Positions 36,804 to 52,101 of a stretch of DNA of 61,346 nt are shown piece by piece. Under the pieces are notes generated by a model. It worked only from the letters and a program-made list of their open reading frames with translations, had not been told where the DNA came from and did not search any database. The first letter of the stretch is position 1. Every line of letters starts with the position of its first letter. Both the position numbers and the translations under genes were made by a program. Origin of the DNA: Candidatus Jorgensenbacteria bacterium (lineage in GTDB: Bacteria; Patescibacteriota; Minisyncoccia; UBA6257; GWB1-50-10); the NCBI GenBank assembly GCA_043807585.1, contig JAZDFV010000003.1, positions 1 to 61,346 on the forward strand. The letters are read 5' to 3'.

Positions 36804-38966
36804 ATGGATATTCGAGAGGCACGCGTACGGGTTTCGAAGCTCCGAGCGGAGGTTGAGCGGGCTCGGTACGCCTACCACGCGCTGGACAAGGAACTTATTT
36901 CGCCGGAGGCGCTCGATTCGCTGAAGAAGGAACTCTTTGACCTCGAGCTGAAGTTTCCGGAACTCATTACACCCGACTCGCCGACCCAGCGGGTGGCGGG
37001 GAAACCGCTCGCACAGTTCCGCAAGGTGCGCCACTTCTCTCCCATGCTCTCGTTCAACGACGTGTTCAGCGAGGATGATTTCCTTGCATGGTTCCTGCGG
37101 GTGAAGAATTATCTTGGTAGGTCGCTGACTGATGTAGAAGAACTTCGGCGTAAATCCGCGCTTGCCCCGTTAGATGCGAAGCTATCTAACGGGGTGAATC
37201 CGCGTGAATCTGCGATGTTCTACTGCGAGCTCAAAATTGACGGACTTGCCATCGAGCTCATCTACGAGGACGGGATGCTGGTACAAGGGTCCACGCGCGG
37301 CGACGGCCGCATAGGCGAGGACGTTATCCAAAATCTCAAGACCATCGAAGCAATTCCTCTGCGGATCCTCGAGGCCAAGGAGGCGATCATGAACGCGCGG
37401 GAACTCGGCTTGGATTCCGAGCGTTTTGACTTCAACCCGGGGCGCCTCGTGGTGCGCGGCGAGGTGTTTTTGACCAAGCGCGAGTTTGCCCGCATCAACC
37501 GCGAGCAGGAAATGCTGGATGAGAAGGCCTATGCAAATCCGCGGAACATCGCGGCCGGTTCCATCCGGCAGCTTGACCCGAAGGTCACCGCTTCGCGGAA
37601 GCTTGACTCCTTCCAGTATGCCGTGGTGAGCGACGTCGGCCAGCGGACCCACGAAGAGGAACATCTCTACCTCCGAGCACTCGGGTTCAAAACGAATCCA
37701 TGGAATAAGCTCACGCACTCGCTCCGGGAAGCAATCGCGTTTCGCGACCACTGGGGTGCGCATCGCGAAAAACTTCCCTATGAGATAGACGGGGCGGTGG
37801 TCATTTTGAACGATAACGCGGCTTTCGCCGCCGCGGGGGTGGTGGGGAAAGCGCCGCGGGGTGCCATCGCCTACAAGTTTTCGCCGCGCGAAGCGACAAC
37901 GGTGGTGGAAAATATCGTGGTGCAGGTTGGACGCACGGGGGCCCTGACGCCTGTCGCGGTGCTCCGCCCCGTGGAGGTAGGCGGGATCACTATCACACAC
38001 GCCACGCTCCACAACTTTGATGAGGTGAAGCGTCTCGGCATCAAGATCGGTGACACGGTGGTGGTGAGCCGCGCGGGCGACGTGATTCCGCAGATAACCC
38101 AAGTGCTTCCCGAGCTCCGCACGGGAAAAGAAAAACCATTCCGTATGCCGGAGCGGTGCCCGGTGGACGGTTCCAGGGTCGTGAAGGAAGGCGCCATCAT
38201 GCGGTGCGGAAACCCGAAGTGCGCCGCCCGCCACCGCGAGGCGCTCCGCCACTTCGTGGCGCGTTCGGCGTTCGATATCCGCGGTTTGGGCGCGAAGATC
38301 GTGGACCGTTTTTTGGACGAGGGGCTCATCGGCGACGCGGCGGACATCTTCACGCTCAAAGCCGGGGACATTGCCGTTCTGGGGCGTTTTGGTGAGAAGT
38401 CGGCGGCAAACATCGTGCGGGAGGTGGCGGAGAAGAAACGGGTCGCGCTTCCGCGGTTCCTTTTTGGCCTCGGCATCCTCCATGTGGGAGAAGAGACGGC
38501 GCTCCTTCTGGCGAAGGAAATCTCAAATCTCAAATCCCAAATCTCAAAACCGACAGACATGCTAAAAGTTTTCCAGAAACTTTCCGTTGAGGATTTGCAG
38601 AACATCAAGGATATCGGGCCGAAGATGTCAGAGAGCATCTACGATTGGTTCCGCGAGCCGCGCAATGTAAAACTGCTGGAAAAATTGGAACAAGCTGGGG
38701 TGGAAATCAAAAATCAAAAATCAAAAATCAAAAATCAAAAGTTAGAAGGACTTACGTTTGTTTTGACCGGTACCCTAAGAACGATGAGCCGCGACGAGGC
38801 GAAGGAGAAAATACGCGCCTTGGGCGGCGAGGTTTCGGAATCAGTTTCCCGGAAGACGAGCTACGTGGTGGCGGGGACGGAACCGGGATTGAAGTACGAG
38901 AGGGCGAAGACCTTTGGCATCCCGACGCTCGACGAGGCGGCTTTCGTGAAACTCCTCAAGGGGTGA
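36804..38966 (+). CDS. ligA: NAD-dependent DNA ligase
   Basis: ELKIDG, STRGDG, BRCT FVLTG; three in-frame repeat insertions. Confidence 0.97.
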   Translation: MDIREARVRVSKLRAEVERARYAYHALDKELISPEALDSLKKELFDLELKFPELITPDSPTQRVAGKPLAQFRKVRHFSPMLSFNDVFSEDDFLAWFLRVKNYLGRSLTDVEELRRKSALAPLDAKLSNGVNPRESAMFYCELKIDGLAIELIYEDGMLVQGSTRGDGRIGEDVIQNLKTIEAIPLRILEAKEAIMNARELGLDSERFDFNPGRLVVRGEVFLTKREFARINREQEMLDEKAYANPRNIAAGSIRQLDPKVTASRKLDSFQYAVVSDVGQRTHEEEHLYLRALGFKTNPWNKLTHSLREAIAFRDHWGAHREKLPYEIDGAVVILNDNAAFAAAGVVGKAPRGAIAYKFSPREATTVVENIVVQVGRTGALTPVAVLRPVEVGGITITHATLHNFDEVKRLGIKIGDTVVVSRAGDVIPQITQVLPELRTGKEKPFRMPERCPVDGSRVVKEGAIMRCGNPKCAARHREALRHFVARSAFDIRGLGAKIVDRFLDEGLIGDAADIFTLKAGDIAVLGRFGEKSAANIVREVAEKKRVALPRFLFGLGILHVGEETALLLAKEISNLKSQISKPTDMLKVFQKLSVEDLQNIKDIGPKMSESIYDWFREPRNVKLLEKLEQAGVEIKNQKSKIKNQKLEGLTFVLTGTLRTMSRDEAKEKIRALGGEVSESVSRKTSYVVAGTEPGLKYERAKTFGIPTLDEAAFVKLLKG

Positions 38967-39015
38967 CCCCTCGCCATTTTGTTCAAAGGGTGAGGGGCGG
39001 GGTATACTGAAGCCA

Positions 39016-39330
39016 ATGCTTTCCGAAAAGGACGTCACGCACCTCGCGGAGCTTGCGCGCATAGCGCTCGCTCCAGAGGAGAAAAAATCCCTCCTCAAGG
39101 ACCTTGGGGGAATCCTCGCATACTTTGAGGAACTGAAGGCCGTTGATACCGAGGGAGTTCGGCCCATTGCTGGCGGCACGAGCTCCATGAACGTGGTGCG
39201 TGAGGATACGGGAAGCGAGCCGATCCCGAACGGCCTCGCCGTGGAGGCGTTCCCAGAGGCGGAGAACGGTTTTCTGAAAGTTCCGCCGGTATTTTCCGCC
39301 GAAGGCGGATCCGCCTCAGGCGGAGAATAA
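39016..39330 (+). CDS. gatC: Asp/Glu-tRNA amidotransferase subunit C
   Basis: HLAELARI, NVVRED, FLKVP. Confidence 0.9.
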   Translation: MLSEKDVTHLAELARIALAPEEKKSLLKDLGGILAYFEELKAVDTEGVRPIAGGTSSMNVVREDTGSEPIPNGLAVEAFPEAENGFLKVPPVFSAEGGSASGGE

Positions 39331-39332
39331 TA

Positions 39333-50351: not shown

Positions 50352-50355
50352 ACTG

Positions 50356-50427
50356 TGCCCTCGCCCCGATTCGAACGGGGAACAACTGCTTCGAAGGCAG
50401 TTATGATATCCGTTTCACCACGAGGGC
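50356..50427 (-). tRNA. tRNA-Arg(TCG)
   Basis: Manual cloverleaf. Confidence 0.88.
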
Positions 50428-50469
50428 TTGTTTCCTTTTGTGGTTTTGCCCAGTGTACAATAAGGGGTA

Positions 50470-52101
50470 ATGAAGTTCAATCCTTCAACAGGGTTCAGGA
50501 TTGATGGTGAGCGGAGTCGAACCATCAATGTTCCACATGAGATAAAAACGATTGCGAAGACGCTCGCTGGGGCCGGTTACCAGGCCTACCTCGTGGGCGG
50601 CTGCGTGCGCGACTTGCTTTTGAAGGAACTTGGCCTGAGCCGCGTCGAAGGGCCAAAGGATTGGGACATTGCCACTGATGCCAAACCCGAAGAAACTCAA
50701 AAGCTTTTTCCGGAAAGCGTTTATGAAAATCAGTTCGGCACCGTCCTCGTGAAACTCGGACCGCTGATAGACGCGGATAAGAGAACTGATAAACACGGAC
50801 ATATCAGCGTAAATCAGTTTACCCCGTTAGATAATTTATCTAACGGGGTAGGTCAGCGAGAATCAGCGCCGCTGAAAGTGGTGGAAATAACTACCTTTCG
50901 GCTGGAAGGCAAATACACCGACAAGCGCCACCCGGACGCGGTGCGGTTCGCGAAGACTATTGAGGAGGATCTCTCCCGCCGCGATTTCACCGTGAACGCG
51001 CTTGCCCTGAGCGTAGTCGAAGGGATGGCGGGTGATATTGTTGATCCCTATGGCGGCCGGGAAGATTTGAAGAAAAAAATCATCCGCGCCGTGGGCGATC
51101 CCCCCCGCCGCTTTGAAGAAGATGCGCTACGCCTCATGCGCGCCGTCCGCTTCGCTGTGGAGCTGGGTTTTGCCGTAGAGAAGGTGACCGCGGAGGCCAT
51201 CCACGACCACGCGGGACTCCTCGAAGTCATCGCAAAGGAGCGTATCCGCGACGAACTGATGAGGATGCTCATGGCGCCCCGCGCCGCGGAGGGCATCGTG
51301 ATGCTCGAGGACCTCGGGCTCCTCCGCTTTGTGCTCCCCGAGCTCCGTGAGGGCATCGGCTGCGCGCAGAACCGGCACCACACCTACACCGTCTTTGACC
51401 ACAACGTGCGCGCCTTGAACTACGCCGTGGAGAAGCGCTATCCGCTCGCGGTGCGGCTCGCCTCCCTCCTCCACGACGCGGGGAAACCGCGCGCGAAGCG
51501 GGGTGAGGGGCCCGATGCGACGTTCCACGGCCACGAGGTCGCTGGGGCGCGCATGGCGGCGAAAATGCTCGACCGTTTGCGGTTCCCACAGGCGCTTACC
51601 GAGGAGGTGATACATCTCATCCGTTGCCACATGTTCTACTACAACGTGGGGGAGGTTTCCGCGGCGGGGGTGCGGCGCTTCCTCGCGCGGGTGGGCGTGG
51701 AGAACGTTGACAACATCCTCCGGGTCCGCGAGGCCGACCGCATCGGCTCCGACGTCCCAAAAGCGTTTCCCTACAAGCTCCGCCACCTTCTCTTCATGAT
51801 CGAGAAGGTGCGGCATGATCCGCTCCACCCCAAGATGCTCAAAGTGAGGGGGGATGATGTGATGAAACTCCTTGGAATCCCCGCGGGGCCGCGGGTGGGG
51901 TACATTCTCTCGGTGCTTTTGGAAGAAGTGATAGACGATCCGAAACGGAATACCGCGAAGTATCTTGAGCCGCGCGTGACGGAGCTCGGGAAACTGGATG
52001 ACAAAGGACTTGCGGCGCTCGCGCGCAAGGCGCGGGACAAGGCGGAAGAATTTGAGGCTGGCGTGGAGGAAGAGATGAAACAGCGGCACCACGTGCAGTG
52101 A
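50470..52101 (+). CDS. cca: CCA-adding enzyme / HD-domain tRNA nucleotidyltransferase
   Basis: VGGCVRDLL, DWDIAT, RRDFTVNA, EDALRLMRA; several REP-derived insertions. Confidence 0.93.
   Translation: MKFNPSTGFRIDGERSRTINVPHEIKTIAKTLAGAGYQAYLVGGCVRDLLLKELGLSRVEGPKDWDIATDAKPEETQKLFPESVYENQFGTVLVKLGPLIDADKRTDKHGHISVNQFTPLDNLSNGVGQRESAPLKVVEITTFRLEGKYTDKRHPDAVRFAKTIEEDLSRRDFTVNALALSVVEGMAGDIVDPYGGREDLKKKIIRAVGDPPRRFEEDALRLMRAVRFAVELGFAVEKVTAEAIHDHAGLLEVIAKERIRDELMRMLMAPRAAEGIVMLEDLGLLRFVLPELREGIGCAQNRHHTYTVFDHNVRALNYAVEKRYPLAVRLASLLHDAGKPRAKRGEGPDATFHGHEVAGARMAAKMLDRLRFPQALTEEVIHLIRCHMFYYNVGEVSAAGVRRFLARVGVENVDNILRVREADRIGSDVPKAFPYKLRHLLFMIEKVRHDPLHPKMLKVRGDDVMKLLGIPAGPRVGYILSVLLEEVIDDPKRNTAKYLEPRVTELGKLDDKGLAALARKARDKAEEFEAGVEEEMKQRHHVQ

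Follow-up and report, generated by a model that had tools for sequence, protein, structure and literature searches.

In-frame repeat segments in core genes of a Candidatus Jorgensenbacteria-like bacterium and their possible relation to a GxxExxY nuclease cassette

How the essential genes of a reduced genome can carry periodic and palindromic DNA within their reading frames is the question raised by a 61,346-nt stretch (contig JAZDFV010000003.1, hereafter the window) from a Candidatus Jorgensenbacteria-like groundwater bacterium with a reduced genome of 0.77 Mb. An earlier note, made from the sequence alone, had described such repeats in seven genes located between positions 36804 and 52101 (ligA, gatC, gatA, pheS, pheT, recG and cca), and attributed them to several selfish micro-repeat families giving rise to surface-loop peptides at unusual density. 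About 15 in-frame hairpin or tandem-repeat segments could be delimited in these genes. The results presented here indicate that they are probably copies or remnants of several small non-coding repeat families, translated as disordered loops and related to a nuclease cassette.

The window is one contig (C3) of an assembly with 15 contigs and 768,659 bases, 97.6% complete. The nearest named relative, from the same genus, is 'Candidatus Jorgensenbacteria bacterium CG23_combo_of_CG06-09_8_20_14_all_54_14', and the remaining close relatives belong to the Paceibacteria (Patescibacteria, candidate phyla radiation). Genes were assigned with NCBIfam models, and their orthologues were taken from 30 related genomes (one of the same genus, 17 of the same family and 12 of the same order) and aligned; single alignments covered 19-30 relatives depending on the gene, and an extended set of 59 Paceibacteria proteins was used to locate insertion hot spots in RecG. 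E. coli LigA (2OWO) and a solved CCA-adding enzyme (6IBP) served for comparison outside the phylum. The congener G001, in which gatA, pheS, pheT and recG are syntenic with the window and the proteins are 83-89% identical, was aligned with the window at the DNA level to define indels within the genus.

Repeat families inside and between genes

The repeats were recovered at every place named by the earlier note, including the seven genes, and the coexistence of several families was confirmed: at least six can be distinguished, each of them both between and inside genes. These are the CCCGTTAGA inverted-repeat hairpin, AATC(N)GCG units of 9-12 nt in inverted arrays, A-rich heptamers, GATGAC hexamer hairpins, GAGC..GTCGAA stem-loops and CCGCC-N4-GGCGG double stem-loops. 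When used as short BLAST queries, each of the 15 segments had 1-19 further matches in the genome, while 60 length-matched pieces of the same genes gave 0.17 matches on average, with a maximum of 1. The G+C content of the AT-rich repeat families is 0.20-0.53, versus 0.62 in host coding sequence. A clear excess was also observed genome-wide. CCCGTTAGA, which leads all 9-mers in over-representation once GC-rich codon runs are set aside, has 110 copies (6-9 in shuffled sequence), AATC(N)GC doublets occur 55 times (2-4 in shuffles) and the GAGC..GTCGAA motif 72 times (5-13 in shuffles), and there are 46 period-7 arrays in open reading frames (ORFs), versus 9-10 in codon-shuffled ORFs, a 4.7-fold excess. 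When motifs are strictly defined, one or more repeat segments are present in 68 of the 552 ORFs with at least 150 codons, and motif density reaches 1.1 per kb of coding sequence in 36804-52101, compared with 0.16 per kb in the genome, which bears out the unusual density that had been claimed. Summed from the coordinates, roughly 6-7% of the residues of the seven core enzymes derive from repeats.

Folding of the segments as single strands separated two designs, hairpins on the one hand and structureless, one-armed A-rich heptamer arrays on the other, the latter being found twice in ligA, in gatA and in the first loop of recG. Five of the 15 segments fold clearly better than shuffled sequences, and weaker hairpins are also present in pheS and recG. 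Hairpin arms consist of inverted arrays of short units, such as GATGAC/GTCATC in recG, CGACCAA/GTCGTAA in pheS and CACGAAT/ATTCGTG in pheT, and the ACGCTGAT/ATCAGCGT arm units are common to recG, cca and ligA. Heptamer arrays with at least three head-to-tail copies were detected by Tandem Repeats Finder (TRF) in ligA (two), gatA, pheS (two) and recG, along with periods of 10, 15 and 18 nt in ligA, the gatC tail and recG. The CCCGTTAGA family has terminal inverted repeats, forming 47 inverted pairs that are mostly about 100 nt apart. Tight hairpins of this type, considered at first sight as a large family, were discarded as such, there being four tight copies only, including those of ligA and cca; the other 43 pairs are elements of 60-120 nt, mostly intergenic. 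The CCCCGTTAGAT..ATCTAACGGGG hairpin in ligA and cca corresponds to the two ends of a CCCGTTAGA-family element, set back to back within an AATC(N)GCG array.

The same families appear between genes in the window. An array at 41760-41885, detected by TRF, is made of ACGCTGATTT / GCGGATTTAT units ending in ATCTCTAACGGGAT, i.e. of the families found in the ligA, recG and cca inserts; a hexamer/heptamer hairpin of GATGAC / GTCAT units is located at 25503-25600; a ATGACGATGACT array followed by AAATCAGC/AATCCGCG units occupies 26713-26860 and has a repeat family (D10) in common with recG 48334-48395; and AACTTAC is repeated 4.4 times at 22157-22187 (TRF). A composite element of about 215 nt with three hairpin modules is present in three copies (27150-27380, 31967-32185 and 45010-45228), just 3' of stop codons, and the middle module of one copy has CCCAGCACATAA..TTATGTGCTGGG ends where the others have CCCCGTTAGA..TCTAACGGGG, as if modules were exchangeable. 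A GAGCCGCGTCGAAGG stem-loop (around 41950-41985, in the region 41940-42100) adjoins what, judged by eye, is a tRNA-like gene on the minus strand (around 42020-42095).

Insertion status, turnover and reading frame

Most segments are missing from the 19-30 related genomes and from E. coli LigA or the Planococcus CCA-adding enzyme, so that equivalent segments across phyla, which would have argued against insertion, were not seen in these two proteins. The first of the three repeat segments in ligA (NAD-dependent DNA ligase; 36804-38966, plus strand; NF005932, E 3.4e-221) is located at 37131-37215 and is composed of AATCCGCG/AATCTGCG units around the tight CCCCGTTAGAT..ATCTAACGGGG hairpin (37164-37195), encoding ..RRKSALAPLDAKLSNGVNPRESA.. 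(LigA residues 111-134). It is missing in 17 of 19 relatives and falls where the two blocks aligned with E. coli LigA meet; the E. coli protein has 2 residues opposite 29 in the query. The segment matches 18 other genomic places and its fold has a z value of -2.9. In gatC (39016-39330, plus strand), the C-terminal extension SAEGGSASGGE (39295-39327), encoded by the double stem-loop TCCGCCGAAGGCGGA TCCGCCTCAGGCGGA (39295-39324; z -3.5), is absent in 18 of 19 relatives. This double stem-loop (TCCGCCGAAGGCGGATCCGCCTCTGGCGGA) is also present, with the same peptide and DNA, in LigA of the relative G019, in frame in the linker that precedes the BRCT domain and with CTAAAAG heptamers on both sides, and thus one element family is present in different genes in different families of the order.

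Four sites were delimited in cca (50470-52101, plus strand). At its 5' end (50490-50530) the stem-loop ATTGATGGT-GAGCGGAGTCGA-ACCATCAAT gives an N-terminal extension with respect to most relatives, although its status as an insertion, at the site around 50480, depends on an uncertain start codon. This stem-loop (50500-50530; z -2.7) has in its left arm the TGA stop (50502-50504) of an upstream 223-codon ORF, so that a single repeat both closes one gene and contributes to the beginning of the following one. The second site (50622-50656), a TTGGCC-TGAGCCGCGTCGAAG-GGCCAA stem-loop encoding ELGLSRV (residues 53-59), corresponds to a seven-residue gap in 23 of 24 relatives and in 6IBP. The third (50755-50870) encodes PLIDADKRTDKHGHISVNQFTPLDNLSNGVGQRESA and is a hairpin of AATCAGCG units with the CCCCGTTAGAT..ATCTAACGGGG hairpin nested in it, with a fold of -27.4 kcal/mol and z -7.8; 41 residues of the query (97-137) stand opposite 4 residues of 6IBP, and residues 98-129 are absent in most relatives. 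The weakest of the set is a small motif, GAGCGTAGTCGAAGG (SVVEG; 51005-51030), in a length-variable loop with a four-residue gap in 6IBP and between 0 and 30 extra residues in relatives. Further downstream, a small stem-loop in a GH1 glycosidase gene (around 59040-59070) is inside a 30-residue segment missing in the solved GH1 structure 1VFF, which allows a distant comparison only. The interval between the TGA of the preceding ORF and the GH1 ATG (cATGAtcccgttag...ctaacgggATGAat) is filled exactly by an element of about 120 nt (58799-58925), whose ends are ATCCCGTTAGAG/CTCTAACGGGAT.

Turnover of the segments was evident within the genus. In pheT (45233-47314, plus strand), the insert at 45735-45802 (..EYPTNNTNGAKKIREIRGRISEY.., CACGAAT/ATTCGTG units; residues ~168-190) is wholly missing in G001, a difference of about 69 nt between PheT proteins that are 89% identical, and other repeats occupy the loop in other relatives. 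In pheS (43984-45018, plus strand), the heptamer hairpin at 44452-44530, with arms CGACCAA.. and ..GTCGTAA (NPTNDQRLTTNNKNGRKLSVESRK), was resolved by TRF as two inverted arrays (inverted heptamer pair at 44456-44524); the loop (around residues 158-181) is 13-20 residues shorter in most relatives, and the congener has a different heptamer sequence there; a 54-nt heptamer hairpin in pheS of G001 is extra with respect to the window. In recG (47429-49690, minus strand) four inserts were delimited. Insert 1 (49240-49283) is a CTAACAA array of 6.3 copies by TRF (peptide TNDSQLTTNNEPTT), replaced in G001 by a AATCTGCG-type hairpin with 48 extra nt, i.e. two congeners have unrelated repeat families in one loop. 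Insert 2 (48335-48420; DHNHDRKTPSLSSSPSLSSSS), located between helicase motifs II and III, is a hairpin of hexamers (GATGAC../..GTCATC), absent in most relatives and longer in the window than in the congener by 12 nt of hexamer repeat. Insert 3 (48075-48125; LINADTYPHKSAS) is a ACGCTGAT..ATCAGCGT hairpin with matches in 17 other genomic places and z -3.4. In insert 4 (47925-47980; KGGSAVRLSSPSKSSGGK), a GAGCTCA..GTCGAA stem-loop (47937-47963) is nested in a GGCGG-type stem-loop, and this nested piece, GAGCTCAGTCGAA, is the 27 nt missing in G001, which in turn has an extra GC-rich element of 51 nt in recG. Most relatives lack RecG segments 139-145, 426-443 and 574-591. An assembly artefact was ruled out: the inserts keep the reading frame, and assemblies produced independently in other studies also have inserts at the homologous sites.

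The heptamer arrays at 38518-38548 and 38704-38740 of ligA and at 40322-40356 of gatA (39333-40793), all on the plus strand, behave otherwise. The first (AAATCTC x4.4 by TRF, peptide ISNLKSQISK) faces an 11-residue gap in E. coli LigA and corresponds to the helix-hairpin-helix loop, in which 4-unit arrays of identical total length were found in five genera, made of AAATCTC (here), AAATTTC, AAACAAC, AAATCAC and degenerate AAATTTC. The second (AAATCAA x5.3, TRF score 74, peptide NQKSKIKNQK) is in the linker that precedes the BRCT domain, where CAAAGCT or CAAAGTT arrays of unchanged length are found in relatives. The gatA array (AACCAAC x3.4 at 40322-40345 by TRF, peptide TNNQQPTTDN) is only about one residue longer than in most relatives, two of which have larger INAD..RKSA-type inserts in the loop. 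Because their length is common to related genera, these three arrays appear to be old or continually rewritten rather than recent insertions; hence the proposal that the segments are true insertions holds for most of them, on the basis of ortholog alignments, solved structures and presence or absence in the congener, but not for these three. The LigA arrays differ by the same change in all their units, which means that units are homogenised or replaced, and slippage by a single unit at this site would break an essential gene. In searches for 21-mer patterns in five genomes, AAATCTC arrays were found at five loci of this genome; the idea that heptamer units are genome-specific was retained as a trend only, units other than AAATCTC being present mostly at the ligA site alone.

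The constant position and length of these arrays in several genera, together with the 12-nt hexamer step between congeners in recG, would fit local low-complexity growth, in which slippage in place enlarges tolerant loops with no mobility involved, and like units result from a shared mutational bias, for example slippage favouring 7-nt units. Heptanucleotide repeats are indeed reported to be the commonest long simple repeats in many bacteria, and slippage has been proposed as their origin (PMC4679880). As an account of the whole set, this explanation is unlikely. Inverted arms, nested hairpins and the CCCGTTAGA inverted repeat are not products of slippage; congeners differ in having or lacking entire segments of 27-69 nt, and unrelated families share one loop; the same sequences recur at up to 19 other places, including intergenic ones; and the composition of the inserts is sharply unlike that of the host genes.

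The location of the segments in the protein was analyzed for RecG, with an AlphaFold2 model built from the 59-sequence alignment (mean predicted local distance difference test, pLDDT, 82.8; predicted template modelling score 0.75). Seven segments of the model have pLDDT below 50; those at 140-146, 429-446 and 575-586 coincide with inserts 1, 2 and 4, and that at 525-529 is at the edge of insert 3, over which blocks average 51-65. Three of the four inserts are entirely coil in the model, and the one near 525-541 has short predicted helices at 526-531 and from 534. For RecG, then, the model supports the surface-loop location that the earlier note had proposed. Inserts of at least four residues cluster in few RecG loops, and the four used in the window (inserts 1 to 4) are occupied in 15, 13, 21 and 6 of the 59 sequences, respectively; in 80 RecG genes, 21 period-7 arrays were counted (0-4 in shuffles), located at those four loops. 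The occupation of some sites in many lineages, and the constant length of the LigA arrays across genera, could suggest that the inserts are adaptive, i.e. that selection on the peptide retains them as functional linkers or interaction peptides. We consider this very unlikely, given that peptides at one site are unrelated between genera and even between congeners, that the conserved feature is DNA periodicity rather than residues, and that the predicted structure is disordered coil.

It had also been argued that a non-triplet period surviving in frame implies selection on total insert length. In an intact essential gene this is logically forced, and the informative evidence is the filtering of frame and strand. 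The frame in use is open in all 15 segments, whereas other frames of the same segments are open in 36 of 75 cases (48%). AATC(N)GC doublets in long ORFs show a 15:1 preference for the orientation read as ..KSA/..ESA, the opposite one having TGA, and heptamer arrays in ORFs have the A-rich strand as sense in a 32:14 ratio. Since excised RNA needs no open frame, the segments are, as far as reading frames can tell, most likely translated and not removed, and we infer that this takes place in vivo. Least likely of all is removal before the protein works, whether from the RNA, in the way of introns and rRNA intervening sequences, or by protein splicing: many inserts are stable hairpins and possible RNase III substrates, but excision requires neither the frame nor the absence of stops seen in 15 of 15, RNase III cutting without ligation would destroy the mRNA, and inserts of 7-37 residues with no intron-like features seen in them are far too short for an intein.

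Some observations made on the orthologue set concern the host genes themselves. A two-subunit phenylalanyl-tRNA synthetase (PheRS) is lacking in 12 relatives (G003-G006, G009, G010, G012, G014, G020, G021, G028 and G030), which have one open frame of about 375-405 residues with 30-37% identity to PheS (e.g. G005:C2:51620-52648). Except in G021 and G030, the same frames also match the last 100 residues of PheT at an E cut-off of 1e-6, and they would thus encode a putative single-chain PheRS resembling the mitochondrial type. In G024, of the same order, the ligA, recG, pheS, pheT, gatA and cca orthologues have one to three in-frame TGA codons each and no other stops, which suggests that TGA may be read as an amino acid in this lineage. 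In the assembly containing the window (G000), no 23S rRNA gene was found in any contig despite the 97.6% marker completeness.

A GxxExxY nuclease cassette with similar arms

The window contains one gene for a GxxExxY protein of the PD-(D/E)XK nuclease type (30344-30739, plus strand; TIGR04256, E 5.5e-17; PF13366, E 1.5e-18), flanked by inverted arms of ACGAATA/ATTCGTA units detected by TRF. The resulting element (30324-30765) is a candidate autonomous relative of the gene-less hairpins. It lies between genes, and no GxxExxY gene was found in any insert of 36804-52101. Both GxxExxY genes of the genome are free-standing and next to unit-array hairpins, of ACGAATA in this element and of ACACTAA heptamers in the one on contig C15 (gene at 2196-2543). 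A search for the family over 31 genomes gave 21 matches above the curated cut-off, six of which are in open frames of 275-888 residues; five of these correspond to nameable host genes, namely RecG of G007, RecG of G021, LepA of G007, GatB of the congener G001 and a glycosyltransferase of G025. In G007 a full-length domain (TIGR04256, E 6e-37; PF13366, E 3e-35) is in frame in the RecG motif II-III loop, and G021, which belongs to a different family of the order, has the cassette at the same site; this loop, which houses the whole nuclease in both relatives, is that of recG insert 2 in the window.

On their left flank, cassettes have ACGCAGATAA arrays, read as ..TQINAD.., and on their right flank AATCTGCGT arrays, read as ..LRESA../..LKSAS..; AATCNGCG-type inserts match the cassette arms. 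The first ligA insert, recG insert 3 and cca insert 3 are built of AATC(C/T/A)GCG units and their complements, arranged as inverted arrays whose 9-12-nt units are of the ACGCAGAT / ATCTGCGT type, as in the cassette, and the same units form the cassette arms of G007, G021 and G025. These three inserts also share with the cassette flanks the peptide signature that the units encode. On sequence grounds, the AATC(N)GCG-type inserts would be, at most, arms-only relatives of the cassette. More generally, the unit-array inserts are best taken as gene-less, arms-only relatives of the cassette in view of the common arm design, added to the shared units of the AATC(N)GCG family and the presence of the cassette in the same recG loop in relatives.

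We propose that repeats of two designs, either hairpins (inverted arrays of short units of 6, 7 or 9-12 nt, or GC-rich stem-loops) or one-armed A-rich heptamer arrays, would land or arise both inside and between genes, and that essential genes would retain only those copies that add multiples of three, have no stop when read in frame with the host gene, and are located in surface loops that tolerate them. The surviving copies would be transcribed and translated as disordered loop peptides. The outcome would be a handful of insertion hot spots per protein and a fast gain, loss and swap of repeats even within a genus, and the inserts may descend from the cassette.

Several points weigh against this proposal. 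The three arrays of ligA (38518 and 38704) and gatA (40322) are not lineage-specific indels with respect to related genera, and could be old low-complexity linkers kept periodic by slippage. No target-site duplications were seen at the ligA, cca, pheT or recG junctions, and precise element ends were not found. Three of the segments fold no better than shuffled sequences (pheT, z -0.3; cca insert 2, z -0.2; recG insert 4, z -0.85). Census ORFs are a longest-ORF approximation, so that totals such as the 68 of 552 are approximate. Finally, the GATGAC insert in the recG motif II-III loop differs in unit family from the cassettes that relatives have there.

With a GxxExxY nuclease as a plausible driver, these elements could go beyond passive repeats and represent an active, undescribed homing-type system, in which the nucleases would drive cassettes and their arms-only derivatives into fixed loops of essential genes, in an intein-like manner but with no splicing step. 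Arrays would be continually rewritten by this machinery or by gene conversion between copies, and this rewriting would explain both the perfect arrays of different units across genera and the unrelated families in congeners. We regard this extension as tentative and, taken as a whole, rather doubtful. PF13366 (PDDEXK_3) is listed with function unknown in a survey of PD-(D/E)XK proteins (PMC3424549). As regards GxxExxY proteins in general, we know of no activity for them.

Known parallels and significance

The closest known parallel is provided by the Rickettsia palindromic elements (RPEs), palindromes present in multiple copies and inserted in frame in the housekeeping genes of a reduced genome (Ogata et al., 2000, 2002; reviewed in PMC10969869). 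Both are dispersed palindromes, inter- and intragenic, in frame in unrelated housekeeping genes, and both are compatible with the protein fold and read as extra peptide, which in the window would follow from the open frames. The segments of the window are not members of this group. They measure 25-116 nt, versus about 100-150 bp in the ten sequence families of RPEs, and consist of tandem 6-12-nt units or tiny stem-loops, with several families nested and some one-armed heptamer arrays; they are also tied to a nuclease cassette, which in relatives is likewise read in the host frame, and belong to a different phylum (Patescibacteria). The units found here are not known to be related to any Rickettsia family. 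Like ERIC, BOX, Correia and other miniature inverted-repeat transposable elements, the repeats are short, non-autonomous, hairpin-forming, multi-copy and sometimes fused in frame (PMC10969869), but classic terminal inverted repeats exist in the CCCGTTAGA family only, no target-site duplication was seen, and density inside essential genes is far higher here.

Tandem 7-nt repeats at many loci, mostly A/T-rich and orientation-dependent in ORFs, are also known as the short tandemly repeated repetitive sequences of cyanobacteria and the TAACTGA repeats of Beggiatoaceae; these are overwhelmingly intergenic, with one unit per genome (PMC4679880), whereas the heptamers of this genome have many units, often in inverted pairs, and form 46 arrays inside ORFs, essential enzymes included. 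The cassette of the relatives resembles inteins with homing endonucleases, as a selfish nuclease gene in frame at conserved sites of essential genes and at the same site across lineages. It differs in having repeat-array flanks and no splicing domain, the insert apparently staying in the protein, and the window genes have the gene-less form only, with inserts of a size that leaves no room for a splicing domain. REPIN / RAYT systems likewise associate short hairpin repeats with an enzyme gene that is present once and bordered by those repeats, although RAYT is a tyrosine transposase, versus a PD-(D/E)XK fold here, and REPINs are extragenic. No account of GxxExxY cassettes or in-frame repeats in this group of bacteria was found in the papers searched.

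Selfish DNA lying in frame in essential genes, so far regarded as peculiar to Rickettsia, would now extend to a second, unrelated lineage with reduced genomes. This bears on the load of junk that enzyme loops can tolerate, on the evolution of protein length and disorder in candidate-phyla-radiation bacteria, and on marker-gene alignment, phylogeny and annotation in the same group, as well as on the function of PF13366, a family found across prokaryotes and viruses. The occupied loops may also be taken as natural maps of permissive insertion sites in LigA, RecG, the CCA-adding enzyme and PheRS.

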